Source: a virus | Taxonomy: Duplodnaviria; Caudoviricetes | Length of the DNA: 64,000 bases | Virus record (IMG/VR): IMGVR_UViG_2831987924_000001 | Reading direction: 5' to 3' (one strand) | In this document: piece by piece, positions 5,821-52,707 of the stretch | Layout of the letters: each line of letters opens with the position of its first letter | How positions within the stretch are numbered: position 1 is the first letter of the stretch | The notes under the pieces: generated by a model | Databases searched by the model: none | Told to the model about the DNA's origin: nothing | What the model saw: only the letters and a program-made list of their open reading frames with translations | Position numbers and translations under genes: made by a program

Positions 5821-6056
5821 ATTAATATTCCTCCTTTTGTTCCTTTTTAATTTAATATTTTTATATTTTTATTGATAATCTTTTATATTTGGAGGATCAC
5901 GCCCAATTCGTTCTATGGTACTCACCGCCTTTCAATAAAACAATTATTTTATCGTATGTTTAACACAAGATGTTGTATGTCAATTTGTTTATCACTACTA
6001 TATATTGTATTATTTTTATATTTTGTTTGATTCGTGTTGTTTAACCCTGCAATCTT

Positions 6057-6116
6057 ATCTTATAACATTTCATTTTCCTTTGTCAATATTATTTTTATAT
6101 TTTATTTAATTATTTT
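6057..6116 (-). promoter_or_regulatory. sigmaA promoter with upstream phage operator-like motif
   Basis: TTGACA (6086-6081), TAAGAT, and upstream TTAAATAAAATATAA. Confidence 0.7.
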
Positions 6117-6121
6117 ATATA

Positions 6122-7513
6122 TCAGCTTATATATTTTTGATTACGTTGCTCTCTTTCTTGCTTTTCTAACTGTTCTTTAATAATCTTTTCAATATTCGGC
6201 GTTGCAATATTTCTCGCAGCATTAATATCAGCATTCTCTTTATAACCACAAACTTGACAAATGAATTGACCTTGTTCTGGTCTCCAATCTTTTTTCTCAT
6301 AACTCTTATGTATATGACCGCATTTTGAACATCTAGCTGACGTATAAGCAGGATCAATATACACTACATCAATTCCATGTTCTCTTGCCTTATATTCTAT
6401 TTTTTGTTGTAAATCATAAAAACTCCAATTCTTTAAAAACGAATATTCTTCAGGAATAATGCCTTCTAATTTTTCCATTTGAATTGTTCCACATTTGTTT
6501 TTTAAAGCTATGTTAATAATTTCCCTGCTCCAAACATGATTCTTTAAGTTTTTAAAATTATTAATTTTCTCCCCGATATTTAAAACAGGTTTTATACGTG
6601 TCTTAATACCATGCCCTACTCGACCATCTCCAGCCCAAACAGACCATTTTTGCAACTGTTTCTTTCTTACTTCAATTTTTGTTCTAAAATCTTCAATCTC
6701 TTTTCGATCTCCAATAAACCATTTTTTATATGGCATATCATTTATAGCAACAGCAGCAGGAATGTTATATCCAATATCTATTCCCATGATTCGATTTTTA
6801 TCTAATTTTTCATCTTTCTTTTGTTCAAAAGAATAAACTAAATCAAAAAATATCTTGTTACCTTTCATAAAGATACGTGAACCACCTATTTTATATTCTT
6901 TATTTAAAACTCGTTCTAAAATAACTTTATTATATTTATCATTTGCTTTAATATAAAAACGAATATTCATATCATTAATGTTTCGTTTATGTACTTTTTC
7001 TTCTTTTTTATTCTTTGTTTTTACAGTAATACCGTTATATAGTTCTTCAGCATATTCTTTTCGCAATAAACGAACAGTGACAATATAATTATTATCGTTA
7101 CTTTTATTGATCTTTACTTGTGACCCTCTAAATAAAATTGGGTGTCCTTTTTTAAAACTTAAAAAACTTGCTTTACCTAACATAAAATCTTCTTTATTTT
7201 TCTTCATTTTTACTTTTACTTCTCTAGTTATTGTTTCAACAGAGTCACCATTCATTTTCTGAAATTCCTTCTTTAAGTTTCTGTTTATATAAGCGTCATC
7301 TGCAACACCTTCTACGTCTTTTACATTAAACTTTATCCCAAATTTACTATAATAAATCTTTTTAAAGTTGTCTGCTTCCCATAAATATTGAGCACAGCGA
7401 TTTAAACAATTCCATGTTTCGTAACTAATTTGATTTAAAATATATCGAAAAACTTCCCAATCATCATCTAAAGGTCTAACAATTTGATACCTCATTGTTT
7501 TAGTACATGTCAT
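6122..7513 (-). CDS. cas12f: Type V-F CRISPR effector Cas12f1 (V-U3/C2c10-like)
   Basis: Collinear with AsCas12f1 as recalled (RYQIVRPLD, IMGID, GHGIKTRIKP, CGTIQME, FLKNWSFYDLQQKIEYKA, CxxC/CxxC, NADINAARNIA); RuvC D/E/D intact; adjacent array and tracrRNA. Confidence 0.93.
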   Translation of the reverse strand: MTCTKTMRYQIVRPLDDDWEVFRYILNQISYETWNCLNRCAQYLWEADNFKKIYYSKFGIKFNVKDVEGVADDAYINRNLKKEFQKMNGDSVETITREVKVKMKKNKEDFMLGKASFLSFKKGHPILFRGSQVKINKSNDNNYIVTVRLLRKEYAEELYNGITVKTKNKKEEKVHKRNINDMNIRFYIKANDKYNKVILERVLNKEYKIGGSRIFMKGNKIFFDLVYSFEQKKDEKLDKNRIMGIDIGYNIPAAVAINDMPYKKWFIGDRKEIEDFRTKIEVRKKQLQKWSVWAGDGRVGHGIKTRIKPVLNIGEKINNFKNLKNHVWSREIINIALKNKCGTIQMEKLEGIIPEEYSFLKNWSFYDLQQKIEYKAREHGIDVVYIDPAYTSARCSKCGHIHKSYEKKDWRPEQGQFICQVCGYKENADINAARNIATPNIEKIIKEQLEKQEREQRNQKYIS

Positions 7514-7704: not shown

Positions 7705-7753
7705 TTTATATCACCTTCACATTATATATTTCCATTCAATATAAATTCATCTA

Positions 7754-9853: not shown

Positions 9854-12649
9854 TTATTGTAATTCTCTTCTTAACTCTTCAATCAGCTTCTTTTTAGCCC
9901 ATTTAGGAATCATTAAAGAACTCGTGCCACTTCCAACATCCATAGATAACAATACTTTCCCTTTGTTCTTTTCTAATGTTTTTAATACTTTTTTAGCTTC
10001 TGTCCAATCAATTTTACGAAAGAGTGTTTTACATTTTCCCCATTGACAAATATAGATTTGAAAACTGTCTTTAACTTTATATAACTCACCATCCTTCGAT
10101 TCATAATAGTAATCAACATGTATAAATGCATCCTTTTTGAAGAAATTTATAATCCTTTCTATACGGTCAATAATCTTTATCAGTATTCTAATAAATATTT
10201 TCTTCATATATCCACACCCTTTTATATTTGAATCAAATCATCCATTTATATTCACCTCGTTTTATTTGAATTCTAATATCCTAATAACTTTTCCCGTTAA
10301 ATAGAAATTTTCTGCACCACTATACAACACTTCATTAAGCAACCCTTCTTTTTCTTCCTCTGTCATTAATTCCTCATCAAAATCACCAGTTAATTCAATT
10401 TCAGCAATTACTTTCATCTTATCAACCTCCTATAAAATGTTAGTTCTATTTATAATACAATAAGATTCCTATCATCTCCTGTAATACTTCTTTCTCTTTC
10501 TTTAATCTCATTCTTTTCTTTTTATACTTTTTAGCTTTATTATATTTTTTATTAATTAAGTCAACAATAACTCGATCAATATTCATGTATTCTGACATAG
10601 CAACAAAGAACCGATAAAACACCTCACTTTCCATCCATATGTATTCTTTACCATTACGGCTTATTTTTTTAACAGGAAATTCATATTGCATTATCATTCA
10701 CCATCCGATAAAGAGCTAATTTTATCACCATTTTTTCATCAAGAATTTAACCTTCTTTAAATATTCTATAATTGTTTCCGTTAAATCAGATTTTTCCGAT
10801 TGTAAAATATCTAAAGCGTTGTCAACATGTTTAATTGCCTCTTTATATTGGTATGGAACATCATCAATATCCAAACTTCTTTTACAATCATCCATAATCT
10901 CCATTAATTTATCAAAGTTGATATTTTGATTCATATAACTATCTCTTAAAGCATACTTGTACCAACTTAACTCAAATCCCGTTGGTTTATGTATGAAATT
11001 AGGTAATTCACAAATTCTATCATCATCTCCCCAATAATAAGGCATTAAAATGAATGTATCGTTCTCAAAATATGTCGCATCTCCAAACTCTGACTTTATC
11101 GTTTTAAACTCGCCTTTATAAGTTTGCTTGTCATTCACAGGTAATCCATAACCATCAAAACCCATATCATATAATTTATAAACAAATGCATCTTGCCAAC
11201 TACGATCAACTCTATATTCTCCTCTTGAATTCCCGAATATCGCATTACCTAATTCCATTAATATCACCTCTGTTTAAAATTTTGTTTTTAAATAGATTTC
11301 AAAAGATCAATTAATTCTCTGCACTCATTGATAATCGATTCTCTTCCCTCTTTTACATACTGTCTAATCACATCTGCTTGACAATTAATTGTATTTTTGC
11401 CTTTGAACATATCGCTAAAATCATCAAACTGCTTTGCGTATTCAACTAAATGGGGATTTTCATCTAAATATTTTAACCACAGTAATTTATACCAGTATGT
11501 AAGATATTTTGTGTCAAATACCTTTCCTTTCAACTCAATATGAGTAGGCTGTCTACCTTTTGCATCTCTCCATGTTTTTGGTACTTCATTACCAAATCTT
11601 TTGCAAAGTTGATAATGATTTTCTATTGAATCATATTTGCCCCACACATTAACTTTTGCATAAAATGCAGAGAATCGTTTATCACCTTTTGAAGAACATT
11701 CTAAAATTTTAATGATGTATCACCTCTCCACAAAAAATCAATTTTATTAATACTCTGTTGAACAAACAATATACGGTTCATCTTTATTTTCCCATTTCAA
11801 TACATCTGCAATAGTCACTAACGCAAACCAGATGCCGTCCATTATTTTCATTTTTCTTGTTACATCTTGATCTTCTTGTGGAATCTCATCTACTTCATAC
11901 CACATCATTACATTTTCCGGATTAACTTCATATGGATAATACATAGGATCTAAAACCTCTTCCTCATTAAGTCCATAATAGTCCATATACCATTGTTTCG
12001 CTTCTTCAAGACTTTTGGCAGCCACATAATCAAATTCGTTTAATCTAAACACTTTCATTTCTTGCATTTGAAAAACTCCTTTCTAAATGAAGTATCGTTT
12101 TTATATAATCAGATAACAAATTGTCTCGTTTACTCAACAATCCATAAATACAAATCATCTAATGGAATTGTATAAGTGTAAGTATCAATGAGGTTTATAC
12201 ATTTTGCTTTATCTCCATCAATTTCTTTAATTAAATAAGGAACAACTATTCCGTTTTGTTTTCTAGAACGTACAATATCATTTACTTTCAGCATTATCTA
12301 TTCTCCCTTCCACTAATAATATTTTTATACTTTAATCTACAATCGAACGAACAAAATCCACCTTGCACATAGAATACACGCAATTTACTTCCACAATATT
12401 TACACGTTTTATGTTTTGACATATCATTCATCCTTTTTATAATCTAAAGAATTTTTGAGGAAAGTTTTTTGCTTTTGTGTGAATAAATTCATCAATAACA
12501 ATTAATGCCACAATAATATTTGCAACAGGTGTTAAAACAAACATTACATCTAACATTTCAGGCATTGTTGTCATATTATTTTTGGCACGCCATCTTACGC
12601 CTATCCATCCAATTATAAATGGTATCACGTACAATAAAACAAATTCCAA
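9854..12649 (-). CDS. Cluster of small hypothetical phage genes (9854-10207, 10446-10697, 10725-11267, 11288-11713, 11747-12067, 12437-12649 and shorter ones)
   Basis: Co-oriented ORFs with RBSs; no recognisable family. Confidence 0.65.
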
Positions 12650-12701
12650 TTAATGAATCCTCCTTTAAAATTTTCGTTTTATTTAATATATGTATTATGA
12701 T

Positions 12702-13478
12702 TTATTTATAATTATTTAAGTCACTATGTATTTCAAGATTATCCAATCGCTTATTCGCAATTTCTATGTATTTTGATTCTGTTTCAAATGCCATGAATTT
12801 TCTATTTAACATTCTTGCTGCTACACATTCAGTTCCACTTCCACAAAACGGGACTAAGATAATATCATTTTCATTTGTATGCAAATTAATTAAAATATCA
12901 GTTAACCCTTCAATTCGTTTTTGTGAAGGATGTTTACCATAAGTCTTTTCTTTTGAAGGAGTTTGCGTAGTTATAAATACATTTCTTATATTTTTACCTT
13001 CGTTTATTTCTTTAGCATAGTTCAAGTTATATGTCCAATTCTTTCCTTTTACAGCCCATATTAATTGTTCAGTGCTTTCAGAAGGATTCCTGCCAGTTAA
13101 ACAAGGCATTGCATTTGTTTTATACCATGTATAATGAGTTTTAATATCATAACCTATTTTTTCAATTTGGTATCCACAAATATAAATATTATGACGACTT
13201 CCCCAAACTAATAATGAACCACCATTTTTTAAAACACGATAAGCCTCACTAAGCCACAACCAATTAAATTCTTCGAAATTGTCTAGTGTGTCCCATTCTT
13301 CTTTTATAGCATAAAATCTTTTTTCTTCTGATTGTATGTACTTCCCTTTCTTCCCAATATTATATGGAGGATCTGCGATTATTAAATCGACACTATTATC
13401 AGGTATCAATTTCATCCCTTCCAAGCAATCCATTTGATAAATGCGATTTAATTCTAAACTACCTAATAATTCTTTCAA
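12702..13478 (-). CDS. DNA methyltransferase, N6A/N4C beta class
   Basis: IADPPY, HPSQK, PFCGSG. Confidence 0.92.
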   Translation of the reverse strand: MKELLGSLELNRIYQMDCLEGMKLIPDNSVDLIIADPPYNIGKKGKYIQSEEKRFYAIKEEWDTLDNFEEFNWLWLSEAYRVLKNGGSLLVWGSRHNIYICGYQIEKIGYDIKTHYTWYKTNAMPCLTGRNPSESTEQLIWAVKGKNWTYNLNYAKEINEGKNIRNVFITTQTPSKEKTYGKHPSQKRIEGLTDILINLHTNENDIILVPFCGSGTECVAARMLNRKFMAFETESKYIEIANKRLDNLEIHSDLNNYK

Positions 13479-13520
13479 ACTATCATCTCCTTTTATAATT
13501 TTCTAAATAAAAGACTGATT

Positions 13521-14530
13521 TTAAACAACCTCAAACCAATTTCCAAAATAACCTTCATGACCTACAACAGCTGCAAAATAATGATGTTTATTGCGATCAT
13601 CAATAATTCCAATCCATTTACCATCATTATGTACAACATCATACACTTTATCTTTAGTTACAAAGCGTTCTTTGGAGATTTTCATATAGTCATCCTTAAT
13701 GGCTTTGAGTTTCATTTATTAACACTCCTTAACTTTATATTTTTATAATTATATTTATTTATCCATCCTTAACTCAACTGGACAAATCATCTCTAAATCA
13801 TCCGCAAGATTACCCATTCTGTTTCCATATGTATCAGCAGTTACCACAAAATCATCTTCTATACCGATAACTTCTAATGGTTTATGGCATTTATTTTTAA
13901 CAATGTCGCCCTTCTTCCATCGCTGCTCTTTTCTTATTTGTTTTAGTTGTTGAATAAGTTCGTGTGCTTTCATAAAACTTATCATCCTTTATTAGTTGGT
14001 TTAACATTAATTACCAACATATTTTGCTTCTAAAAACTTCTCCCACAACTTAAATTCATCATCTATATAATTTTGAAAATCTTCACTCTCACAGAAAGTA
14101 TCTACTGACTGTTGCATACACTCAAATTCTTCCTCTAAAGGCAATTCAACTACATGAATTCTATTCATATACGCCCACCTGATGATTTGATCTTTATTAG
14201 CATTGCTTCCTACAAGTTCATTCATCTTTTCTAGATTTGTCATTTTTAATCCTCCCTTTTTATTAAATACACTTTTTCTTCGTACTGTTCACTAAATTAT
14301 TTTTTAGAATTAACTTCTTTTACAAATTCTAAAGCCTTTTCTAATTCATCTTGATAAAGATAAATTGTAGTGTCGTTATAACCGTTTAAATAATTTTTTA
14401 AAGTCAGTGTTAAAGCGACAAGTTCACCATCTGTTTCAACTTTCAAACTAGACCTATCATTATCAAAAATCACTTTACTTTTCATTTCTTCCACTTTAAT
14501 CACTCCTTTACAGTATGTGTCTAACATCAA
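13521..14530 (-). CDS. Four small hypothetical genes
   Basis: ORF track plus RBSs. Confidence 0.6.
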
Positions 14531-14544
14531 TTAAAACAGTCATT

Positions 14545-14700
14545 TTAATCAAATTTACCATCTACAATAAATTCATAAAGCATTTTATAAGCCATTTTTC
14601 CGCCTTTAAAAATTAACTCTTCTTCGTAGTTTCTTTTTGGAACATTTTCAATTTCGTTAAGTTTCAATTCTAATCACTTTAACAGTTTATTCTTATCCAT
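14545..14700 (-). pseudogene. Small gene with in-frame TGA at codon 9
   Basis: MDKNKLLK*LELKLNEIEN...GKFD* after a good RBS. Confidence 0.55.
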
Positions 14701-16522: not shown

Positions 16523-18043
16523 TTATATATTTTCCTTTAATTTATCCATCTCAACACTAAATTTCTCTCCCATTTTCTTTAATTCATCTAATCCACCGCC
16601 AACTAAACCAAACTTAACCCATTCTGGATAACGAAATTTCTTTAATACTTCTTTAAATTCTTTTGTACTCAACAAAGGTTCTAGTTCATAAATCCAAACA
16701 TTATTAAAAAACCATACTGTTATTAACGCATCCCATAATGCTCTCGAATCAAAACATAATTTATGTATATACTTATAATATGTTATTCTTGCTAATATTC
16801 CATTATAATTAGCTCTCATTAATACTTCTGTAATATTTTTAATATCTCTATTACCATTAAGTATCTCATATTTAGCGTGATAAAAATCATTTATTGCTAT
16901 GTAGTCAAATGTTTTAAATAATTCATTCTGCAATATTCGCACTTGTTCATTGAAAGGTATACTCACTGTATTATCACCTCTTTGCATAAAGTTTGTCCTT
17001 TATTCAAATTCCTTTAAATACTTTTCAACCTCAATAAAAACATCACAAATCTTTTCATAATCATCAACACTCAAATTATGCTCTCCACGATTTAAATATG
17101 TACAATATTCTACATCAAGTTTTGTTGAAGCTTCATATAACTTTTTTAATAAATTATTTAATTTACTAATCTCCTCCATATATATTTCTTTCTCAACTAA
17201 CAATGACTCAATAGTAGGTAAATCAGCAATTGGACATAACATTGAAAGCTGTTTGCGAAGTTTTTCGTTTTCTTCTTGTACTTGTTGGAGCTGTTTCTTT
17301 AATTGATATCGATCTTCTAACCATTTATTTTTATAAAACTCCCTCATTTTTGCATTTTGTTCATTTTCTTGCTGCAACTCCTCAATAACTGGCTTAATAC
17401 CTTCAAACACTTCATTTAAAAATTCCTCATCAACTTCAACAAAATCATCTAATGTCATTGTTCCATAGCTAAATGCTTCTTTTGATCTAGTCAAATGATA
17501 AAGATATGTACCATCTTCACATTCATCAGTTAAACCAAAATGTGAAGCCAAGATATTTCTGATTTGCTGTAATTTATCATTCATTCTTCCACCTCCAATA
17601 TCAACTCTCTATATTTTTCAATTTCATACCCTCCCCAGAGTGTCGGATCACCAAGCTCTCTTAATTGTTTAATCTTTTTTGCTCGCTCAATAAGCCATTC
17701 TATATCTCGATCTTCGATAAACCCTCTTCTGAACCAATCTTCGATCTCATGTAATTTATTATTCATTTATATTTACCTCCTATTATTATATTTTTTCTAC
17801 AAATTGAAACTTTTATCTAATTTCTTTTTGATTTAACGTCATCGCAAAACGTTTCACACATTTATCATTTTTATTGCATAAATGGTAGACCCTATTTGAA
17901 AATGGTGTTTCTACGCAACCATGTTGCAATACTTTACCTAAATGAATTTCTAAAATATTTGTTTTATCTGCATGAAGCTTTCCACACATGTCACATACAT
18001 AAGTTTGTGGAACAAACATCGCTCTAACCTCCCGATAAATCAA
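16523..18043 (-). CDS. Four hypothetical phage genes
   Basis: ORF track plus RBSs. Confidence 0.6.
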
Positions 18044-20501: not shown

Positions 20502-21503
20502 TTATTTTTGTCCAATATCAATACCATATAAATCGAGTATGTTATCACGATTAATAAATTGTCGCATTGCATGGTAGTTATAAGTCTCATGCCCATTATT
20601 AATAATTTTCCCTAAACCAAACTGTTCTGCAATCTTAGCTAACTGCTTATTAGTTAACTCTCCATCTTCTTTATATAAATCAACAGCGATCTTAATCATT
20701 CCAGAACGCCATATATTTTTGATTGTTAAATAAGGCATATCAAATAATTCTTTAATCATATACATTCTGCGATATATAACATTTTTGTCAGCTTCTCCTC
20801 TTGTTCTCCCCGTTAGAACGTTTTTAATTATATGATCTGTCTCATAATACGGATACTCACTTTTTCCATGCTTTGATTCTTTTTCACCATTTCGAGCATA
20901 ATACACTTTTTCGTTAATTGCTTTTTCAATAATATCTAAACATCTATCACTAACTGTAATAAATCTTTCACCGTTTTTATCATCATATAATCTTAATCGT
21001 TTATTTGTATAATCTACATCATATTTTTTCAAATTAATTAACTCACTGACCTCATACCCATTTGCGCCTTCAAATAATAATCTTAATATTACTTTATCTT
21101 GATAATTCACTAATTGATCTTCAATTTCAATTAGCTCATCTTCTGAAATAAACAGTTTTTTACTTTTATCTATACATTCTTCGTAATCTTTTGCAGTAAA
21201 CATATCCATTGGATTAATATTACTATTCGTTAATCCTATACGAATAGCCCAATCAATATATTTTTTCATCATGGAAGCAAATGAGCGGACGCTGTTTAAT
21301 GTACTTTTATTTGCATTTAATAATACTTGCTTTAATTCACTCATATTAAAATCATACATATCTTTTTGTAAAATATCCTCTACATCATAACTCTTATAAA
21401 AAACAAACCTGAAAACATGAACCGTTTCCTCTGTATATCCTTCTTCATCGATTAAATATTGCAAAAATGACTCTTTAATTTCCTTATTATACATTTTACT
21501 CAT
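20502..21503 (-). CDS. YopR/MrpR-like master repressor (degenerate tyrosine-recombinase fold)
   Basis: MYN..IKE.FL, LRLLFEG, IWRSG; catalytic R and HxxR missing. Confidence 0.8.
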   Translation of the reverse strand: MSKMYNKEIKESFLQYLIDEEGYTEETVHVFRFVFYKSYDVEDILQKDMYDFNMSELKQVLLNANKSTLNSVRSFASMMKKYIDWAIRIGLTNSNINPMDMFTAKDYEECIDKSKKLFISEDELIEIEDQLVNYQDKVILRLLFEGANGYEVSELINLKKYDVDYTNKRLRLYDDKNGERFITVSDRCLDIIEKAINEKVYYARNGEKESKHGKSEYPYYETDHIIKNVLTGRTRGEADKNVIYRRMYMIKELFDMPYLTIKNIWRSGMIKIAVDLYKEDGELTNKQLAKIAEQFGLGKIINNGHETYNYHAMRQFINRDNILDLYGIDIGQK

Positions 21504-21518
21504 TCATATTCACCTCTC

Positions 21519-22877
21519 TTATGCCAAATCTAATTCTTTAAAGAATTTATACACGCCTTGTTTCGCTCTTGTTACTACATTCTTATTTTTATCCAACACT
21601 TTATATTCTTGCCATTGTTTATTGTCTCTTGAAAAATCAATTTTTGAAACAATGTTAGGTAACTGTTCTAATGAAATACCCTCATCTTTCATTCGTTTAG
21701 ATAATAATACATATCCATAAAACATTACATTAGCGTTAATCAAACTTTTTTCTCTTATCGCTGCTACATCACCTAAAAATTCATCTGGAAATGCATAGAA
21801 CAATTTGTTGAAGAATTCTTTTAAATAATTCGCTGTCTTAATCGCTTCAACTCTATCCTCAATTCCATACACTTCATCAATAGCATCTGCTAATGTTTTT
21901 AACGATACTAATAACGATGTTGTATGTGGGATATTTTCAGATGGTGAAATTCTACTTTTCAATTCACTATTGTATTTCAACTGATCTACGATAAAATCAG
22001 CCTGTCTTTCTTTTTTAATATTTTCTAAATGCCCTTTACCGATTGGTTCAATTGTATTCATTTGTGCAAAGTATGCTCTTGCTTTTGGTATGTCAAAGTT
22101 GACCACATTAAGCATAAATGTCATATCTGCATCAGGATTTTCTTCTAGTGCTTTGACAATTGCCGTTACACGATGGAATCCGTCAAGACAATCCAATAAC
22201 GTACCTTTTTGAATTGTAAGCTCCATTGTTGATTCATCATAAACTAATTCAATACCATCATCAGCAGTACCTAAACGAGCATTGAACGTTAGTGTTGAAG
22301 GTAAAGCATCACCTTTTACAATAGATTCTTTAATATGTTCCATGTGTTTCTTATTAATTTTTACTTCTTGAATAATATTGTTTGGATCATTTTTATCTAC
22401 TCGAACTCTTGCTTCACGTTGCGTTTCAAAGTTATATTGCAGCAATTTATTGTCCATGAAGAGTTTAATTTCACTTGCTTTTATTGTAGTAAGAAACATA
22501 TCTGGTGCAACTTGAATAGCTGGTTTAAGTGTATAAGGAAAATCAACTTTCTTTTGTACTTCACCTTCAAATGTACTTTTTACTTCTTTGATTTCCCTTT
22601 GTGAAAAATAATTCTCAGGATTCAATTCTAAATTACCCGAAGCAATATAAACTTGTTCTGTTAGTAAGCATAAGAATTTGTCATCAATTTGTTTTAATTG
22701 TTCTTCTGGTTCATTCAAGATCAATTGCACTGTTCCCGGTAAAATTTTATATTTCTTTAAGCCGTTTTTAACCTTTGTAACACGCTTCTTATCTGCTTTA
22801 ATACTTTCAATAGTAGCCACAAGAATTTCTTGTAGCTGTCCTTTATTTTTCATTTTAACAACCACTCCTTTTTTCAA
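21519..22877 (-). CDS. YopQ-like protein with ParB/DndB-like motif
   Basis: QYNFETQRE, LDGFHR; synteny. Confidence 0.75.
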   Translation of the reverse strand: MKKGVVVKMKNKGQLQEILVATIESIKADKKRVTKVKNGLKKYKILPGTVQLILNEPEEQLKQIDDKFLCLLTEQVYIASGNLELNPENYFSQREIKEVKSTFEGEVQKKVDFPYTLKPAIQVAPDMFLTTIKASEIKLFMDNKLLQYNFETQREARVRVDKNDPNNIIQEVKINKKHMEHIKESIVKGDALPSTLTFNARLGTADDGIELVYDESTMELTIQKGTLLDCLDGFHRVTAIVKALEENPDADMTFMLNVVNFDIPKARAYFAQMNTIEPIGKGHLENIKKERQADFIVDQLKYNSELKSRISPSENIPHTTSLLVSLKTLADAIDEVYGIEDRVEAIKTANYLKEFFNKLFYAFPDEFLGDVAAIREKSLINANVMFYGYVLLSKRMKDEGISLEQLPNIVSKIDFSRDNKQWQEYKVLDKNKNVVTRAKQGVYKFFKELDLA

Positions 22878-22927
22878 CTCCTTCTCATTATAATATTATA
22901 CCCAAATGTATAAAATGTAAACATTTT

Positions 22928-23953: not shown

Positions 23954-23977
23954 TGTTATTACCCCTTTATAATTTAT

Positions 23978-24196: not shown

Positions 24197-24231
24197 AATT
24201 TTATATTTTGAATAAAGGCAGAATTTTATAC

Positions 24232-35599: not shown

Positions 35600-36009
35600 T
35601 TTTTATGTAGCGTGGATTTAAATATGCTTTAATCGCATTTTGTAATCCTTGATTAACTAACTCAATCGACTCTTTATTTAATTTATCATTTTCAAGAAGA
35701 TTAGCCCAAAATTTAATTTCTTCTTTAGGATCAGGCAACGTCTCGATTTTATTTTCAAAATTCATATTTATACATCCTTTTATAATTTTATTTAATCACT
35801 TTTCGATCAGTGTCTCAACTGCCACACCAAAGCTAAATACCGCCAACATCATCAATCCTAGAAATTGTACAACTGTTTTCGGATTATCATACCATCTCAA
35901 AGCAATAGCCATAAAAACAATGCTAAGAAAAAGAAAGAAATAAAACATCAATTCACCTCCTGTTATTATCTTTAATATTATTATAATTTATTTAATTAGG
36001 TTTGACAAG

Positions 36010-43740: not shown

Positions 43741-44164
43741 TTTTTAACCTCCCAATAAAACATGGATTTTATTTAAAGTTTAAAGCATTTTAAATGCTTT
43801 TAGAAGCAAGTACATGAAACATTCATACTTAAAATAAGCCCATGATATTCTGTGAATCCTATTATTAAAGTTTACAAAAAATGACTGACAATATTTTCAT
43901 TGTGATGTTATGTTGAAAAGTGAGAACGAAAAACGTTTTAAGTAAAAGTCGCCATGATTTTTAAATCTCGCTGTTATGTTAAAAAAGTTAGTACGAAAAA
44001 CGAACACGGCTTAAAATATCGTAGCAACCTTCTTTGCTGCCTGTTATGTGGAAACGTCAATTTTAAGGCATAGGATGGCGTTTATGCGTTCGATTTAATT
44101 TGTAAATATTATTATATTTTCACACATAAACGCCATATAAGCCCGTTCGCCAGTAGTGGCGCTG

Positions 44165-47100
44165 TTATGATACTTTTTGACTTTCTTTATCCTGTTGCAC
44201 TAAATAAGCTATATATCGTTTTGCATCCTCTAATTTATCGGTTGACTTCATTTCATGAATTTCTCGATTGCCTTTAAATATTCTAAAACATCCCCACAAA
44301 CGAGCTGTCCAATAGTCCCCGTACATATAGACACGTTTACGCTCTTTATAGCCCATGTATTCGATTTCTTTTGTCATGACTGTAAATGTAAGTTCATTTT
44401 TTACACTCTCAACAGCTTCCTTTATACGTTGCTCTTTTTCTTTCTGTATTTCGTTCTTTGCTCTGTTAATAGTTGCATCTATTTGCTTTGTTAGTTCTAC
44501 GGACTCCTGTATTAACTTATCATATCGGCTTAGCGCTTTGTCATATTTGCGCTTATTTAAATTTCCGCGCCCGGTCACTGCCCACGATGGGTTCTCACTA
44601 CGATGACGCAATATTTTCACATAGTTGTCAAAATAACGCTTTTTAAATGACTGAAGGGACTTTTTAAGATAATACTTTATGCGCTCGTTGTCGGTTTGTT
44701 CTAGTAAGTCAATGACCTTGCTGTTATATTGAGTAAATAATTCTTGTATTTCCTTTGTGTGATCTCGTTTTTGAGTTCGAAAAATCCAACTTGCCGCATG
44801 TTCAGCTTCTTGTAGACGTTCATCAATGACATAAGTGTCTATATCGTCAATATTAATATCTGGATATGCTTCCCGTTCGCCTACATCTTGGCTGTTATGT
44901 GTATCGTATGAATGAATTAATACATAATCATTTAAAATGTCGCTGTCATATCCTTTGCCAATTTCTTCACCATTAGCACGAATAAGGAAATAAAACGGTT
45001 TTTGTTCGTCTAAATTGGTATTAATACACTCCAATAGTATAGAATCGCTATTTTTAGCTTTAAATAAGCATAAAGGCATTACATTATCCTTTTCTAGACG
45101 TTTTGACAATGTTTTTCGCTGTTCGTCTGTTAGTTCACTGTTATATGAATCAGACAGGAGCGACTGAACAAAATTAAGTCGCTCGTTTGTCTTTTTAGCA
45201 TACCAAAAACCTTGACGTGACCATTTGAAGCCGTATTGTTTCAATTGCTCCCGAATAGCTTCGCTTGGCTTTTCGGAAAAATAAAGTTCTATGCCGTTCT
45301 TTTCATCGTTGATTTTATAGGATACTTGTAGCGTTGTCGCTTGTTCGCTGTTATTGAGTATTTTGGCTTGTAAGTCTTCTAGTGATTCGTTTGCAGGCAT
45401 GTTATTGAGTTTTTTGGCTTCTTCTTGCATTGTGTCATGGTTCATTATGTCATGGTTGCTTTGTTCTTGTAAAATGCCTAGCTCGTGCATGTTGTTGCTG
45501 TTATTGAATTTTTGGGCTTCTTGTATAGTATCATTTACAGCTTTTTCTTTTTGTTCGTTGCCTAGCTTCTGTATGGTGTCGCTGTTATTGGTAAATTCAT
45601 GTAATAACTTAATACCATACACATGACGATCATAATAATCTAACTCATGACTAGAAAAGGCAAAAGAACCATCGAGAAGGAAAGACATATATAGGTCTTT
45701 GCCTTCATTCGTTTTCACATGTAAAACGGCTTGCTTTGCTTCATTTTGACGCTGATAGACAGCTACAAAGGTAAATTTGTCATTGTCTTTGTGACGGTTT
45801 AGAATCTCATTAATTTTAGCGTTTTGACATTCTGAAAGGTCTTCATGATAAAATAATACTTCTTGAAGCGGTTGTTCTTCTTCTGCTACTATTGCAGCTA
45901 TTTCGCTATTTCCCGCGCTGTTATTGCGTTCGCCCGACTGATCGCTTGGATCAGTCGGGCTTTTTGGTGTTTCATCATCATAGAGCATGTAAGTATCAAG
46001 AAAGTTTTTCCATGATTCACGGTCTGATTTTAAAGCGTTTAGATAGCTTTCATATTGTTCTTGTGTCCAGCTATAAGGTTTTTTCATTCCTGCCATTGTT
46101 AAAGCAAAGTTTTCAATATGCTCGGACAGTGGTGCGCTTTTGTATAAATCGCTTGCTTGTACATCAATACGTCCTTCGTATTTTCCACCGTCTTCCCATT
46201 CGACGCGGAAAGCTGTTTTGTCATATCCACCAGTGTCTTTTCTAAAAGCTATATCTTTTATAATTTTGTTAGCTTCTTCCCATGTTGTAACGGTTGTGTC
46301 GTCTTTAATTACTGGTGATTCAGACCATAAAAATGTAATTGATTTTACTTTAATTTTTTGCGTTTGTTCTTTTTCAGTTTGTAACCGTTCTTTTGCTTGT
46401 TGCGTGTTATCGTGTTCCGATTCGGTTACATATTCGGACTTTAGGATATTAAAAAGTTCGCTATTTTGTAAAGCATTAACGGCATTGTAAACGTCAATAG
46501 GTTGCACAAATGAATATTTGTTATTCTCTTTGACGTCATAGTAGGCATTTTGCAAAGTAACGATATAAGGTTTCAAGTCTGTCATACGCAGAGCGTCATT
46601 AAACGGTCTATTTGTTGCGATTAAATCAATAAGTGATTTATGGGCATTGTAAGCGTCCGCTAATGTTTCGACTTGTTGTGGATCTTGTTGCTCTTCCGAC
46701 TGTTCCGCTACTTCTTCCATTTGTTCTTTTGCCTCACCTGCTAACATTTTCGCGAATTGTAAACGATCAGCAGTTTGTTTTGCATACCATATTTTTTTGT
46801 ATTTACTCCAGCGAAAACCTTGCGCCTTTAGCTCGTTTCTTACTTCTTCACTTGGTATGCTTGTAAAAGAAATTTCGATGCCGTTTAATTGTTCGTTTAG
46901 TGTGTATTTAGCTTGTGCTTCTGAATGTCGCGGCTCTTGTTGGGCTTCTTTTGGTTGTTTCGGCTGTTCTTGTTGAGCTTCTTTTTGGCTCTCAAGTGCT
47001 TCTAAATACTCTAAATACATTTTTTCGGCTGTTTCGTTAAATGCTCTATAATAGCAAGCGCGGTCATTTAAATAAGATTCACCATAATTTGCGCGGACTT

Positions 47101-47371
47101 CCGTTTCAATTTTGTTTTTTAGTTCGTTAGTCCATTCTTGACGAGTGAAAACGAATAAATTACCACCTGACAGAATTTCACCTGTTACTTCGCAACGTTG
47201 CACTTGTTCATATTTTGAAATGACTTCTTCGACGGCTTTTTCTGTAGGGAAATTGGTCCATCTAACATTGATCGAGCCGGAACGTTCGCAACGTACAGAA
47301 AACTTTGTAAAAGGAAATTTTTCTTTTAACTCTTGACGGATTTTTTTAGCTGTTTCTTTTGTGTTCATCAT
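44165..47371 (-). CDS. Large polyvalent protein (LPD29-like N-terminus, duplicated GIE..F..P...LK..GF.WS...WYAK domain, LPD25-like domain)
   Basis: AKKIRQELKEKFPFTKFSVR; WSES...GYDKT...YEGRID; internal duplication. Confidence 0.7.
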   Translation of the reverse strand: MMNTKETAKKIRQELKEKFPFTKFSVRCERSGSINVRWTNFPTEKAVEEVISKYEQVQRCEVTGEILSGGNLFVFTRQEWTNELKNKIETEVRANYGESYLNDRACYYRAFNETAEKMYLEYLEALESQKEAQQEQPKQPKEAQQEPRHSEAQAKYTLNEQLNGIEISFTSIPSEEVRNELKAQGFRWSKYKKIWYAKQTADRLQFAKMLAGEAKEQMEEVAEQSEEQQDPQQVETLADAYNAHKSLIDLIATNRPFNDALRMTDLKPYIVTLQNAYYDVKENNKYSFVQPIDVYNAVNALQNSELFNILKSEYVTESEHDNTQQAKERLQTEKEQTQKIKVKSITFLWSESPVIKDDTTVTTWEEANKIIKDIAFRKDTGGYDKTAFRVEWEDGGKYEGRIDVQASDLYKSAPLSEHIENFALTMAGMKKPYSWTQEQYESYLNALKSDRESWKNFLDTYMLYDDETPKSPTDPSDQSGERNNSAGNSEIAAIVAEEEQPLQEVLFYHEDLSECQNAKINEILNRHKDNDKFTFVAVYQRQNEAKQAVLHVKTNEGKDLYMSFLLDGSFAFSSHELDYYDRHVYGIKLLHEFTNNSDTIQKLGNEQKEKAVNDTIQEAQKFNNSNNMHELGILQEQSNHDIMNHDTMQEEAKKLNNMPANESLEDLQAKILNNSEQATTLQVSYKINDEKNGIELYFSEKPSEAIREQLKQYGFKWSRQGFWYAKKTNERLNFVQSLLSDSYNSELTDEQRKTLSKRLEKDNVMPLCLFKAKNSDSILLECINTNLDEQKPFYFLIRANGEEIGKGYDSDILNDYVLIHSYDTHNSQDVGEREAYPDINIDDIDTYVIDERLQEAEHAASWIFRTQKRDHTKEIQELFTQYNSKVIDLLEQTDNERIKYYLKKSLQSFKKRYFDNYVKILRHRSENPSWAVTGRGNLNKRKYDKALSRYDKLIQESVELTKQIDATINRAKNEIQKEKEQRIKEAVESVKNELTFTVMTKEIEYMGYKERKRVYMYGDYWTARLWGCFRIFKGNREIHEMKSTDKLEDAKRYIAYLVQQDKESQKVS

Positions 47372-47467
47372 AATTAACTACCTCCATATAATTTATTATA
47401 ATTTACTTAAATTATATCATGGTCATTTAATAAAATCAACTTTTTATATAAAACAAAAGCCCACTCT

Positions 47468-50400
47468 TTAAGAGTGGACAGTGTACGGGATAGCGTAGTT
47501 ATTTGCAATCATTTTAATACCTCTTGCTTCTTCTTGCGTTTTTGGGTAAACGGTTAATGTTTGACGATCTCCTTTTATGCTTAAATATCCATATCCTTCC
47601 CTAATCTCTTTTAGACCTTCTCTCACATTGTTGCGCCAAATTTTAAACTCCTTGTCATTGTTACGTTTAATTTTTTTAAGTACGATCATCATTTAAACCA
47701 TCTCCTTTATTATTATATTTTCCCTACAAGTACATTATAAACCTGCTAATTACTAAAGTCAACGACTAAATTATAAAAGTAACATCGTTTTCAACGCACA
47801 TAAACGGCTTATTTTCGCATTTTGCAGCGTTTAAATGGTATAGCATTAGGGTACTATCTAAAACGCAAAATTGGGCGATTTTAAGCGTATGGGAGCGTGT
47901 GAAGTGGATAGGTGAAGGGAAACAAAATGATTGGCTGAATGTGAAAAAATAATAAAAGCAACCTTCTACCATATTGGCAAAAGGTTGCTCGTTATGGTGG
48001 GAATATGTACATTGTATCAGCTCCAGTCATACGATTAGGAAGTATTCTTTCAAGCGATGTTTAGCAAGTAACCGATCTATAACTGGCTCTACTTCTTCCG
48101 CATAGGCAAGCTCCTTAATTTCATCATCGGTTAGGTTTGGGTAGACTTCATTTATTAAAAATTCGTATGCTTCTTTTAGTTCCTCGCGCTCCTTTTTAAT
48201 TGCGTAATATGATGAAAAGTTATAGATGATCGCCATTTTTATTACCTCACTTTCCATATTATATTTTTCAATATTATTATATTGTTTTCCATTTCAAAAA
48301 TCAACCATTTTTTATATTTTGATACAAAAAATTAACCGATCTTTTTATGATCGGTCGAGAATTCCTTGCTTAATATTGTTAATCCAGTCCTCAACATCTA
48401 AATATAAATCATCGAATGATTTTTCAAACGGATACCATTCGGCGAATAAATCAGCGTCAATGTTTTCGCTTTCGACTTCCTCCATTAATTGTAACCATGC
48501 TTTTTTAAAGTTTTCTAATGCTTGTAATGTATGGTTCAATTTTATTCACTCCTTTTTTATATAAAATCGTGTTTTTATCGTACCTATGAGGGATTAAAAC
48601 TCGGGATTCACTGACGCAATCGGTCACTCCAAAACAGTAAACGTTCTTTCCACAAATCTTTATCGCAAACTCGCAAAGTATTGTTTTTGTCATAGTAGGC
48701 GACAATGTCGCCCATGTCGAGGGCAACATCCCAAATATTGTCATTGTTATTCCAATTGATTTCCCATCCTCCTTCCCAGTCCGAGAAATCATCATTAAGA
48801 GATGAAGCGTTAAGAAAGCAATATAAAGTTCGTTCATCAACCGGAAAAACTCCTTTTTCCGTGATAACCGCATCATAAGCTCCCGTATGGACATAAATTG
48901 CTTGATACATGTTATCATCTCCTTTTTTTAAATTGTAATAAAATCAATGTCTAAAACACTTTTTAGACACTCATTTTATTACAATTCGCTTGCAGGGAAT
49001 TCAATCCCTGCAAGCTATGGAATTATTGCATAACTATGCTTGTCACATACTTATAATAAACATTGTTATATTCATCTGTTTTTTCTTCAAACAGATGAGC
49101 AAACTTTTTCCCGTGTGCTTTCGCTTCTTCTCTTGCTTCGTCAGTGTCTTCGACAATTTGATAATAGAGCTCTGCTCCTTCTTCAATTCGATCAACGGCG
49201 AATTGTGAATTATAAGTGTAGATTGCGAACATTTTAAACACTCCTTTTTTTAATTTATTTTTTTTGGGATCACTCACCTTATCGTCGGCACAAGCTCCCT
49301 TATGCCGACTGTAAGAGAAGCGATCATTTTTAAAAGTGCACGTCTACCAGCAACGGTCAGCGATCAGTATAATCAATGATCACATACTCATCCGGTCGAT
49401 ATTCAACTGTGATGGGACGGATGCGGACGTGCAAGCTTGTCGGTGTGTATTCATCCGTATAGACGATGCCATCGTATTCTTCACCGTCCCAAGCGTCATG
49501 AGACAACCCGACAAGCTCCCCTGTCCGCTGGGAGCGGATAAGCCGGACATCGCGGAACGGTGAGCGGATTTCAAACCATTCTGCCAATTCGTTCGGGAAA
49601 CCCAATTCTTCCCATAGTTCGACTACCGCGTCGAAATCATCTTCTTCTGCTGGAAAATTCGCCGGATTGTCGTTCAATCCACACCAGACGAAATCAGCTG
49701 TCCGGTTCTCAAAGTCGATAGTCACGTATACAACGTCGTCGCCGCGGACTTGATCAAGCCGGTCGGCTTCGGCTTCAAAGTATTTGCGAGCATCAACAGA
49801 AAATTGGACTTTCATAACTTTCTACCTCCATTCATCGTTCCCAAAAATGCTTCCATTTTTAAATTTCCCCTTTCGATTTTTAATTTTTTTAACCTTTCTG
49901 ATTATAGTATATCACCATTTTATTTAGCTGTCAACAATATTTTTTATTATATTTTAGTCGAATTGATCTCATGAAATACTGATTTTATTTAGAGTTATGA
50001 AAATCAATAAATTCATTTAACTTGTATATTGACCATTTATAACAATCTGTTAATTTTTGATATTTGTCATGCATACTACACATGTTGTTAATATCTTCAT
50101 TTTCTAATTTTAATAAATCTGTTTCAAGTTCTTTTGCATCCTTATACCAGTCCAAATAAATAATAGAGCATCTAATATAATAATCACCTTCATAATGTTT
50201 AAATAAATGTAATTCCGGTAAATTTCTTTTGATCAACTTAACGGTTAACAATGTATCAGTGATTCTATAAAATTCATTTGCTGAAATCGTAAATAATTCA
50301 TTAAAGTTTGTGATTTCTTTAAATTTAGGCTTAAATGTTGGATTATCAAAAATAGTCATCCCGTTTTTCGTGTAGTTAAATGAAAATATTGCACTTAGCA

Positions 50401-52707
50401 TTGTGAAGACCTCCTATAAAATCATTTTAAAGTTGATAAATTTAGTTAGGTTGCAGGTGTTCGGCTGTTATTGTGAACACCTGCAGAAATGGTGTCACAT
50501 CATCACCGCTTGATCTTGCAACGCATAGAATTTCTCTTTGTCAAAGCCATATTCGCGTTTAAGTCTGTTATACAGCTTATTCATTTTATAAGTGTATTCT
50601 TGCTGCTTTCGCTCCTGCTTCTCAAAGTGTTCAATTGTGCCATCCCATTGATATTCTTGCAATTCATCCATCCATTTTCTAATAAGTAAAGCGTAGACTT
50701 TCATCATTAATGATCATCTCCTTTTTTTAATGCTTTAAGTATTAAAACAGAATCATGTCGCCGTATTGCTGTTTATATGCTTCGTATTCATCCGGCATAA
50801 TTGAGTAGCATTTTTCCATTTTTACCTTAATGCCTAGACCATTGATCATTTTGTCAATGTAAGCATTCATTTCCTTTTTGTCATCCCATTGTGATACGTT
50901 GATAATAATCATTCTAAACACTCCTTTTTATAATTTTCTTTAAAAGTAATATTTTATCGGCTTGCCATCGTCAGGTAGCAAGTTGCCATCTTGCTACGAC
51001 AAGGGAATAACTTCCCTTGTTTCGGCTTATTCTTCGAAAAATTCATCGAGTAAACGATCAAATTCATATATATTAAATTCATGCATATTAATTTGATTAA
51101 CCATTTCACCAGTCATTTCCTCTTTGTCACGAACGAATTCTTCTACACGGTCAGAAATCGAAAAGTTTAAACGTGTAAATTCTTTTTTCATTTTTTCATT
51201 TCCTCCTTATAATTTTTAATAAAAACCAAACAACAGCCAGCAAACTGTCGTCGCGTGACCGTCACATGTATTATGGTGCTGCTCCCTCTTTCGAGATCGT
51301 CGCCAGCTCCGCTCGGTTTATTGGCTCTTGTTTAGTTTTTATTGCCTTATCTGATTATTATTATACAGGTGATTAGGTGATAAGTCAATAGTTTTTTATA
51401 TTTTAGTTAGATTTTTTGAATAGATCAAAGCAATAAAAAATGACTAGCGGTCAGCTAGTCTTTAAATAATCCATCATTGCAATATATGCTATTGCGTCAG
51501 CATCTTGCAGGCTTTCACCTGCTTCTATGCATGCCTTGTATACAATGTTAGAAGCTTGTTGCATCGTTGATCCTGTTTCCATCGCTTCCATAAAGATTTT
51601 CAGCGCTTTTTCGTGTGTCATTGTGAAACCTCCTTCATCATCTGGTAAACTTCTTCCTTCTCATCATCCGAAACATCATATATAGATGTTATGCCTTCCT
51701 CTTTAATATATTTGTATATTTTGTATATCTTTTGATCGGCTTCAAGAAAACTGATCAGAACTTCTTTTTCATGTCGTTTTGGTTTAACTCTTAATACGAT
51801 GTCAAAGAAGTGTATTATATCTAATTCATACAATCCATTTGCATATGCAAGTTTGACTATTTCTAATTTTTCCGCAAACGAAAGTTTTTTATAAATTACT
51901 TCTGCTTGCTTGCGGCTGATAAAGTTTTTTTGTTCATAATAGCGACAAACCGACTGTATAAATTGATCATTATGATGTTTAACAGCTTCATAAATTGCTT
52001 TAGCTTTGACTCGAGCAACGAACAGCCGGAATTTTTCTTGTTCAATTTTCATGCGTTCAATCTCCGGCAACGCGACGCGCTTCCAACATTCTTTTCCGTA
52101 TGGTCGACCATTCCAAAAAAGCGGTTTTTCGATTGGACGATTACAAGCGGCACATTTCATAATTTGTCGCTCCTTTTATATATTTTACTTACTTATATTA
52201 TACACTTATATCATATAAATATCAATACTTTTATAATTTAGTTAAATAAAAAATGGCTAGCAATTAGCTAGCCATATCAAGTGGAATCATATTATGTTTA
52301 ATAAGTAAATCTAAATGTTGATTTTCGATATATTGCCATTCATTAGCATAAATTAGGTTAATCAAATCAACAAGTATCAATTCTTCGTTTTTTGTTAATT
52401 GGTTTCTGAATTTACTCCATAGTTTACGAGCTTCTTTTGTAGACATTTGCTTTAATACGTTCATTGCCTGCTTTCTTTGCTCCTCTTTTTGTTCCATTTC
52501 ATTTTTTACAAATCCTAATTGCTCCAGCTCTTTAGATACTTTTACAAAATCCTTTTTTCCGTGAATCCATTCAGGAATTTCTATGCCTGCTTGTAAGTGT
52601 CTTTTAATGAATAAATCCCATGCAGCATGCGGATCGTTGTTAGTTTTTAAAAGATATTCGGTTACTTCTTCACGCATCCACTTCATTTGTAATTTATTAC
52701 GTCTCAT
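47468..52707 (-). CDS. Early-region small hypothetical genes (47468-47692, 48027-48257, 48345-48539, 48608-48910, 49023-49277, 49357-49815, 49985-50401, 50495-50707, 51618-52160, 52264-52707)
   Basis: ORFs with RBSs downstream of strong promoters. Confidence 0.65.
50964..51026 (-). ncRNA. Hammerhead ribozyme, type II
   Basis: GCC-GAAAC-[AAGGGAA/TTCCCTT]-GTC-[GTAGCAAG/CTTGCTAC]-CTGACGA-T-GGC; complete catalytic core. Confidence 0.88.

Follow-up and report, generated by a model that had tools for sequence, protein, structure and literature searches.

A strict palindromic word at gene junctions of SPbeta-like phages and its possible role as a set of heterospecific crossover joints

We analyzed a short palindromic word, TAAAA-N6-TTTTA, which recurs at gene junctions in a 64,000-nt stretch of viral DNA (IMGVR_UViG_2831987924_000001; G000:C5:1379872-1443871), referred to here as the window. 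The window is the central part of a prophage of about 143 kb (30% GC; G000:C5, about 1349000-1492000) which, judged by its gene content, is a distant, thermophile-hosted SPbeta-like phage of the thermophilic Bacillaceae, similar to Geobacillus virus E3 (GVE3). The word is a real, strict and family-wide element of SPbeta-like temperate phages. We consider it possible, with a probability of roughly 0.4, that its copies (called joints below) are heterospecific crossover joints, probably for a catalytically intact recombinase of the YopP family which is encoded in the window. An earlier reading made from the DNA letters alone (the sequence-only reading) had taken the word for the recombination site of an integron-like cassette system. 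This interpretation was borne out in part: the excess at the 6-bp spacer, the breakpoints at the word, the intact enzyme and an 11-6-11 site layout speak for it, and the likeness to integrons was lost.

Perfect copies of TAAAA-N6-TTTTA were found 12 times in the window, whereas 1.98 were expected (standard deviation 1.37, maximum 7) and none of 100 dinucleotide shuffles reached 12. All eight perfect copies reported before, starting at 5936, 11275, 12666, 13508, 14532, 43756, 48562 and 50941, are present, and four more start at 17951 and 28646 (both inside open reading frames, ORFs), 35579 and 47431. The fixed 6-bp spacer that had been claimed for them holds: in a count over the spacers N0 to N12, N6 gave 12 copies in the window and the remaining spacers 0-6, and in the whole prophage slice N6 gave 22 copies and the remaining spacers 1-13. 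Everted and direct arrangements of the half-words showed no spacer peak in the prophage. Symmetric double variants are enriched at N6 (42 versus 23-27) in the prophage only, where the N10 spacer accounts for 13 perfect copies. The 22 copies that had been listed as near-perfect did not hold up as a class. Eighteen of them have one mismatch in the core and four have two, and copies with one mismatch are not enriched at N6 (90 versus 58-100 for N2-N11), apart from a small excess among those with good flanks (10 versus 1-6). Most of the listed near-perfect copies are indistinguishable from background; those at 10709, 11731, 24213 and 26626 coincide with perfect GVE3 copies and are credible variants for that reason.

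The placement of the copies relative to genes is partly stereotyped. Scored by script, the word supplies its TAA as stop codon to an ORF of at least 40 codons in six of the 22 copies of the prophage and seven of the 30 of GVE3. A start codon with a preceding Shine-Dalgarno (SD) sequence is found at most 37 nt downstream of 11 prophage and 18 GVE3 copies. Eight of the 12 window copies lie directly 5' of a ribosome-binding site (RBS), seven of them found by script and one (43756), which the script missed, by eye. Among the remaining window copies, the one at 47431 overlaps the -35 of a promoter-like site (by eye) upstream of the gene for a protein of 1068 amino acids (aa), the one at 5936 lies downstream of a TnpB gene, and two are inside ORFs. 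Elsewhere, copies come after terminator-like hairpins, ahead of promoter-like sites or in the gap of two convergent genes.

The same strict spacing was found throughout the phage family. GVE3 has 30 copies at N6 and 1-8 at the remaining spacers, SPbeta has 34 and 0-4, and in phi3T 30 of the 46 matches over N2-N11 have the N6 spacer. Four Spbetavirus regions of 23-27 kb hold 10-14 copies at N6 and 0-1 at other spacers. Six further loci, fetched solely by similarity of their YopP protein (40-54% identity) from Bacillus, Heyndrickxia, Metabacillus (two), Robertmurraya and Cytobacillus, hold 4-9 copies at N6 per at most 21 kb and 0-4 at other spacers. In an unbiased count of all 5-N6-5 palindromes in these six loci, TAAAA ranked first in every locus and was the sole entry in five. 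As negative controls, phiNIT1 and SBSphiJ5, both Herelleviridae phages of B. subtilis with 155 kb of DNA and no YopP homologue, showed one N6 copy among 15 and one among 11 matches, respectively, and the host chromosome (3.58 Mb outside the prophage) showed no excess, with 19 copies at N6 and 5-18 at other spacers. An earlier description of the word was not found in the literature searched, which did not cover the 1999 SPbeta genome paper.

A sequence logo of 86 perfect copies, oriented by gene direction, extends the word to a symmetric 28-bp dyad, TTTnnA-TAAAA-N6-TTTTA-TnnAAA. Position -1 is A in 72 sites and T in 14, and never C or G; the centre tends to begin with T and to end with A, and its four inner bases are unconstrained. 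The extended site thus has the two arms of about 11 bp, the dyad inner part and the 6-8-bp centre of a Xer-type core site, in agreement with the earlier suggestion of a dif-like core for a tyrosine recombinase. No centre is repeated among the 22, 30 and 34 copies of the prophage, GVE3 and SPbeta, a result that is weakly informative since only about 0.1 repeats are expected by chance, and palindromic centres are absent from the 86 sites. When the 28-mers are folded as RNA at 37 C, their mean minimum free energy is -1.35 to -1.64 kcal/mol, compared to -0.7 to -0.8 for shuffled controls; at 60 C, a temperature in the growth range of the host group, it is about -0.1. Because this fold is weak at both temperatures, a stable free-standing hairpin is not the selected property of the word, least of all in a thermophile.

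The joints, the cassettes which they bound and the candidate enzyme in the window are listed below; no strand is assigned to joints.

5936-5951, joint, perfect; 16-mer identical in GVE3 (89237); about 170 nt downstream of TnpB gene 6122-7513; alignable on both sides.
10709-10724, joint, one mismatch; perfect GVE3 copy with the same centre (93621); alignable on one side only.
10725-11730, minus strand, cassette bounded by joints 10709 and 11731; two ORFs, 10725-11267 and 11288-11647 (NADAR-like), on either side of joint 11275.
11275-11290, joint, perfect; TAA is the stop of a 143-codon ORF; start codon 16 nt downstream.
11731-11746, joint, one mismatch; perfect GVE3 copy with the same centre (94389); homology begins exactly at the edge.
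12666-12681, joint, perfect; GVE3 copy (95407) with one centre base different; unalignable on both sides.
12682-13507, minus strand, cassette between joints 12666 and 13508; N6/N4 DNA methyltransferase gene 12702-13478.
13508-13523, joint, perfect; 16-mer identical in GVE3 (95718); TAA is the stop of a 64-codon ORF; unalignable on both sides.
14532-14547, joint, perfect; TAA is the stop of a 42-codon ORF; start codon 37 nt downstream.
17951-17966, perfect match inside ORF 17813-18043; possibly chance (background about 2 per window).
22928-23953, minus strand, candidate enzyme, YopP-family Xer-like tyrosine recombinase; R162, K188, H246, R249, H272, Y281.
24213-24228, joint, one mismatch; after a terminator-like hairpin; perfect GVE3 copy with the same centre (110255); alignable on one side only.
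26626-26641, joint, one mismatch (TGA stop variant); perfect GVE3 copy with the same centre (111930); unalignable on both sides.
28646-28661, perfect match inside ORF 28457-28678; possibly chance.
35579-35594, joint, perfect; TAA is the stop of a 67-codon ORF; start codon 24 nt downstream.
43756-43771, joint, perfect; 16-mer identical in GVE3 (128122); homology stops at the last base; RBS directly after.
47431-47446, joint, perfect; 16-mer identical in GVE3 (132623); after a terminator-like hairpin; homology stops 4 nt past the joint.
48562-48577, joint, perfect; start codon 22 nt downstream.
50941-50956, joint, perfect; TAA is the stop of a 52-codon ORF; GVE3 homology begins inside; no GVE3 copy there.

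The prophage and GVE3 are mosaics of each other, and the joints often mark where homology between them ends. In comparisons of the two, 11 of the 96 ends of high-scoring segment pairs (HSPs) lie within 20 nt of a perfect copy, whereas random placement gives 0.6 for the prophage copies alone, and 25 of the 96 lie within 25 nt of a copy scored by a matrix derived from SPbeta. HSP ends at perfect copies concentrate on the edge of the word. Of 33 such ends, counted manually in six genome pairs, 17 are no more than 2 nt away from the outward edge while about 4 are expected from the 40-nt window used, and several others are found 7-12 nt further out, close to where the 11-bp arm ends. As the pairs have events in common, these numbers are not independent. 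Seven 16-mers are identical in the prophage and GVE3 (0.16 by chance) and 14 copies are colinear with at most one difference; about 12 of these 14, counted manually, stand at the edge of alignable DNA or form islands in unalignable DNA. Joints at 12666, 13508, 26626 and 86437 are such islands, unalignable on both sides. Two cassettes of the window have been replaced between conserved joints. Between joints 10709 and 11731 the prophage has 1006 nt and GVE3 has 752 nt of unalignable DNA (GP113, GP114), and between joints 12666 and 13508 the prophage has 826 nt and GVE3 has 295 nt (GP118, 88 aa), with no blastn cover in either case.

A similar picture emerged from the four Spbetavirus regions, in which 12 of 14 site families, read manually, switch one or both flanks at the 16-mer and keep the centre with no or one change; one site occurs in three combinations of two upstream and two downstream flanks. 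To judge from these alignments, gene exchange between relatives demonstrably occurs at the edges of the word. The laboratory hybrids of phi3Ts and SPbeta were compared from annotation tables alone. Hyb2 switches within long homologous stretches and its switches could not be assigned to a joint, and Hyb1 is phi3Ts-like across the whole region fetched. The accessible part of the preprint on the hybrid phages mentions one non-homologous junction 'following yosA', which is close to SPbeta joint 116415.

Centres are shared between joints of different genera more often than expected. Ten identical centres were seen between genera, compared to 2.7 expected for uniform composition or about 3.8 after correction for composition (manual arithmetic), and in eight of nine cross-genus centre pairs the 700-nt flanks have no protein similarity. 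The neighboring SPbeta joints 86886 and 87599 and two neighboring joints of Metabacillus arenae (L027:18726 and 18964) have the same two centres in the same order and on the same strand around unrelated cargo, and the centre of window joint 13508 recurs in another Metabacillus locus (L028:952). Although the numbers are small, the cross-genus identity of centres is suggestive.

The recombinase gene at 22928-23953 belongs to a conserved group of three genes which also identifies the phage family. It is of the Phage_integrase family and is adjoined by a DndB/DGQHR-like gene (21519-22877; a YopQ homologue) and an MrpR homologue (20502-21503), the latter matching the Pfam domains MrpR_N_CB (E 5e-24) and MrpR_C_cat (E 7e-30) and the solved MrpR/YopR/SroF chains with E values of about 1e-45. 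This trio at 20502-23953 is syntenic with yopP-yopQ-yopR(mrpR) of SPbeta and represents a conserved lysogeny trio. Together with 33 SPbeta protein matches (21-66% identity) in the prophage, which shares the replication and structural backbone of the family, the synteny indicates that the prophage is a distant, thermophile-hosted member of the SPbeta-like phages. At 30% GC it lies 20 points below its contig and both large contigs of the host assembly (about 51%). The closest phage is GVE3, with 83% identity across 60% of a 10-kb probe; when 48 family genomes (one per species) were searched with 10.5 kb of the window, only short or weak matches were obtained outside the source genome.

The predicted recombinase has the full R-K-H-R-H-Y set (R162, K188, H246, R249, H272, Y281) and thus appears catalytically intact, as the sequence-only reading had stated; the catalytic roles of these residues are assigned from the motifs of the family, not from a structure. 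In 51 aligned homologues (from 96 hits), R, K, H, H and Y are invariant (51 of 51), and Arg II is R in 45 and K in six. The architecture is Xer-like (Phage_int_SAM_1 followed by Phage_integrase), and the best matches among curated families are the XerA, XerC, XerD and XerS models; with a top score of 53 bits against equivalog cut-offs of 220-335, the protein is not a member of any of them. No match to solved chains was found by sequence search. In SPbeta, excision is carried out by the serine recombinase SprA, and yopP is one of the SPbeta-like core genes with probable activity in the lysogenic state, according to the portion available of Kohm et al. (PMC10516654). As SprA handles excision, YopP is left without an assigned role in the literature searched. 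A YopP-type enzyme and 11-6-11 sites occur together in all ten SPbeta-like genomes and loci examined and are both absent from the two control phages; this association is weak because the control phages differ in everything else.

On this basis we propose that a Xer-like tyrosine recombinase, most likely the YopP-family protein 22928-23953, would bind the two 11-bp arms of a joint and exchange strands across the centre. Strand exchange needs matching centres, and every joint of a genome has an asymmetric 6-bp centre different from the others, so that the only partner of a joint would be its counterpart in a relative that resides in or infects the same cell. The two relatives would thereby trade gene blocks with no change in gene order, and the joints of one genome would not delete the DNA between them. 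We initially counted the differing centres as an argument against a tyrosine recombinase; this was dropped, since it holds within one genome and not between matching joints of two. We infer four steps of this scheme: that any recombinase binds or cuts the sites, that YopP is the enzyme, that exchange depends on the centre, and that exchange is the selected function.

Several observations weigh against YopP-driven crossover at the joints. About half of the copies lie a few nucleotides 5' of an RBS, and recombination needs no such placement. When junctions with and without a perfect copy were compared between the prophage and GVE3, 8 of 15 with the word and 50 of 179 without it were broken on the prophage side (p 0.07), and 9 of 24 and 53 of 176, respectively, on the GVE3 side (p 0.49). 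Scoring the same junctions with a position weight matrix gave modest effects, with odds ratios (ORs) of 2.3-2.6, Fisher p values of 0.03-0.16 (thresholds 8 and 10) and rank-test p values of 0.027 and 0.024. In the Spbetavirus regions a pooled test of HSP ends gave 18 of 66 junctions with the word and 49 of 177 without (OR 0.98), and a test of flank adjacency gave 23 of 35 and 62 of 131 (OR 2.1, p 0.06, from pairs that are not independent). The clustering of word junctions in accessory regions is a confounder left in these tests. The share of HSP ends located at a perfect copy is small, from 3 of 20 to 12 of 128, so that most mosaicism does not need the word, and some breakpoints at word-less junctions fall at an RBS. 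The expectation that gene gain and loss would map to the motif therefore stands in so far as homology often ends at its exact edge; most breakpoints are at word-less junctions, and the enrichment is only about 2-fold. Edge breaks at a common word of 16-28 bp are equally expected from homology-driven crossover (Sak4-like, SSB and RecJ-like genes are present in the phage). In the 83%-identical pair of prophage and GVE3, the centres of orthologous joints change at a roughly neutral rate (manual reading), so that selection on centres is not shown for this pair. As to the enzyme, SPbeta YopP (NC_001884, 78691-79767; L006:28691-29767) has Lys at Arg II where the window protein has Arg, and the arms are invariant across phages in which YopP is only 30-50% identical, which would also fit a more conserved binder.

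Such a binder is at the heart of the strongest rival, which we regard as rather unlikely and nevertheless serious. The dyad would be the site of another dimeric protein, of the phage or a conserved one of the host, with a regulatory function such as an operator or roadblock for silencing or timing of early genes, as in mycobacteriophage stoperators, or a control element upstream of the RBS. Being identical in related phages, the word would at the same time serve as a passive patch of short homology for general recombination, and the two explanations are not mutually exclusive. The strict sequence requirement and the dyad with a free centre, in which the half-site centres are one helical turn apart, speak for it, and so does the stereotyped placement: roughly every second copy is found 0-50 nt past a stop codon, at a distance of 14-37 nt from the start codon that follows. 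The 2-fold enrichment of breakpoints, with word-less junctions breaking almost as often, is in line with a passive patch, and the arms do not vary among phages whose proteins are about 30% identical. The PeSL elements of T4-type phages provide a precedent, as far as the accessible text describes them (PMC2839356). A copy adjoins the operator SPBRE in three of the ten SPbeta promoter regions bound by MrpR (gene names from the available part of PMC10516654). On the other hand, no candidate binder was identified, and some copies are found where genes converge or with no RBS in the vicinity. The word is not the operator of MrpR, for which the reported peaks of chromatin affinity purification sequencing (ChAP-seq) are the ten SPBRE promoters only, in the text available of PMC10516654, and the host chromosome without N6 excess gives no sign of a host regulon. 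A centre that is free to vary leaves the identical centres between genera (10 against about 3-4 expected) unexplained.

Specific regulatory identities of the word were considered and rejected. The upstream regions of the ten genes with MrpR ChAP-seq peaks have a different, longer and non-palindromic word containing AATATGTATA, which rules out the MrpR operator; all ten peaks are at SPBRE-bearing promoters in the portion available of Kohm et al. (PMC10516654), and the phi3T homologue of MrpR (SroF) reads about 24 bp as a monomer according to the part of a 2025 preprint that was available. SPbeta joints 76171, 99498 and 129297 lie within about 5-30 nt of SPBRE at the promoter regions of aimR, yorE and yosX. 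A promoter for the next gene was ruled out by eye, since an RBS 1-20 nt after the word leaves no room for a -10 element and a leader. The ComK-type AT box is AAAA-N5-TTTT. It was ruled out because N5 is not enriched in the prophage, GVE3 or SPbeta, and a host regulon was ruled out by the lack of an N6 excess in the host chromosome. Nor is the word a copy of host dif: the host dif-like site, found with the B. subtilis dif sequence from PMC3025954, differs from the joint at three of ten core positions, while the joints are strict at ten of ten. This dif-like 28-mer (three mismatches to B. subtilis dif) occurs twice, at G000:C5:850286-850313 and at C1:5029-5056 on a 16-kb contig.

An mRNA hairpin between cistrons, acting as a processing site, as a 5' stabilizer or, bound by a phage protein, in translational coupling or repression, is improbable. 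It would account for the position of the word in transcribed intercistronic spacers, often on the stop codon and just 5' of the SD sequence, and for the outward extension of the palindrome, as expected of a longer stem. The 28-mer RNA is nearly unfolded at 60 C, though, and symmetric double variants, which preserve pairing, are not enriched at N6 in GVE3 or SPbeta, as they are in the prophage only. One-mismatch variants, including those compatible with G-U pairs, are not enriched as a class, and a hairpin leaves the conserved centres unexplained.

Even less probable, to the point of being very unlikely, is a true integron-like system, in which attC-type sites folded as single strands would be used by an IntI-type integrase that captures promoterless cassettes at attI. 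The integron attC sites are long (tens of bp to more than 100 bp), imperfect palindromes which fold single-stranded, and attI and the cassette promoter (Pc) lie beside the integrase, where the array begins. Both systems have in common that an imperfect palindrome recurs between small accessory genes, here mostly on the same strand, and that a tyrosine recombinase gene is part of the array or near it, but the features tested contradict the integron reading. The protein 22928-23953 matches no integron-integrase model at E 0.01 or better and only weakly matches Xer models. Its gene stands in the middle of the array inside the yopP-yopQ-mrpR trio, without an attI/Pc arrangement beside it, and the site of 16-28 bp has no stable fold and is no long attC. 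Individual genes are equipped with an RBS, promoter-like sites occur at several junctions, and the joints are positional: they keep their order between genomes and do not travel with cassettes. Finally, a functionless by-product of AT-rich junctions (a TAA stop with a run of A, and a run of T before the RBS) would suit a genome of 30% GC in which versions with one or two mismatches are very common at all spacers and the TAA often doubles as a stop codon, and it has next to no chance in view of the N6-only excess in ten independent genomes and loci, its absence from two other AT-rich Bacillus phages, the symmetric flanks and the whole 16-mers that are identical at matching positions of diverged genomes.

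Nearly all genes of the window are on the minus strand. A second junction word, AAATAAATTATAA(A/T)A, is found directly before many RBSs and sometimes after a joint (e.g., 23954-23977, 35766-35795 and 13479-13520), and in SPbeta a word like TTTAGAATAAAAATAAAATTAGTGGAGG follows several joints. Accessory cassettes hold four DNA methyltransferase genes, one of them short (12702-13478, 24270-25157, 31488-32078 and 33598-34368), and the accessory cargo includes a NADAR protein (11288-11647) resembling the antitoxin associated with DarT1; the NADAR and methyltransferase genes are plausible counter-defence cargo. Genes of the TnpB/IS605 OrfB type lie at 6122-7513 and 26964-28148 (Cas12f1-like TNB domain), and the corresponding region of GVE3 has several annotated IS605-like transposases. 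The 1068-aa protein is encoded at 44165-47371, where the GC content is locally about 36%, and has LPD29 and LPD25 domains of large polyvalent proteins; the promoter-like site before its gene overlaps joint 47431. At the end of the long minus-strand array (56455-62762), genes for a RecD2-like helicase, an FtsK/SpoIIIE-family ATPase and a weakly TrbL-like protein lie side by side.

Extended to the whole family, our proposal would be that SPbeta-like phages have a natural cassette-exchange system with 20-35 heterospecific 11-6-11 sites per genome, each with a 6-bp 'address', which is read by the YopP-family enzyme. We hold this wider claim to be doubtful. Such a system may be present in mesophilic Bacillus, in thermophilic Geobacillus and in five or more additional genera of the Bacillaceae, with addresses that are partly common across genera. 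If it is real, any two relatives could exchange blocks in register, with gene order preserved and no loss of DNA from either. Phage mosaicism is usually ascribed to rare illegitimate or short-homology recombination followed by selection, and here a dedicated recombinase would carry out a programmed, order-preserving exchange of modules in a well-studied model family, of which SPbeta and phi3T are genetically tractable in B. subtilis 168. The core gene yopP would have a role, the fast turnover of accessory, anti-defence and methylase genes between fixed neighbors would be explained, and about 30 natural orthogonal recombination sites would become available as tools. If the regulatory explanation is true instead, every SPbeta-like phage has an undescribed regulon-like element in about 30 copies.

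Among known systems, the stoperators of L5-type mycobacteriophages lack symmetry, point in the direction of transcription and are recognized by the repressor of the phage. The joints are like them in being two to three dozen strict short sites in short intergenic gaps of a temperate phage, often at stop codons. They are different in being a dyad, and the repressor of this family, MrpR/SroF, binds a different 24-bp word as a monomer, as given in the available part of its description. With the PeSLs of T4-type phages, the joints share that short, repeated intergenic elements lie in accessory regions of large phages and accompany modular shuffling between relatives, as described in the accessible portion of PMC2839356. 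Whereas a PeSL consists of a sigma70-like early promoter and a terminator stem-loop and recombines by homology, the word is far shorter, has no promoter or stable stem of its own, only some copies being near promoter-like or terminator-like sites, and has a centre specific to each copy.

In site anatomy the joints resemble Xer/dif sites. Like difH of XerH and difSL of XerS, they are 28 bp long, with two 11-bp arms, dyad inner parts and a 6-bp centre where exchange takes place, and the difH and difSL arms, which end in GAAAA and begin with TTTTC at the centre, are much like ATAAAA and TTTTAT of the joints (available parts of PMC5357621 and PMC6449649). In contrast to Xer/dif, which has one site per replicon, the window alone has 12 copies and a phage genome 22-34, the arms are almost perfectly symmetric and consist of A and T only, the candidate enzyme is far below every Xer cut-off, and no role in dimer resolution is implied. 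The pdif sites of Acinetobacter plasmids are also many 11-6-11 sites per replicon which lie mostly in the accessory part and bound shuffled modules, according to the available part of PMC6449649, and several Xer-type sites bounding exchangeable modules are likewise found in the prophage. They differ in that pdif resembles chromosomal dif and is thought to use the host XerC/XerD, while the word differs in sequence from the host dif and the phage has its own candidate enzyme; moreover, the joints are on a phage genome instead of a plasmid and have a fixed order and a unique centre each.

The arrangement of the joints is similar to that of the heterospecific lox and FRT sites used with engineered Cre and Flp in recombinase-mediated cassette exchange, in which sites have identical arms and different spacers and like sites recombine. 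To our knowledge, a natural, phage-wide set of such sites has no precedent. The joints have 11-bp instead of 13-bp arms, and their dependence on the spacer would have to be of the same kind. As in the engineered systems, the joints of one genome have identical arms and distinct asymmetric spacers, and cassettes are replaced between two different joints that are conserved.

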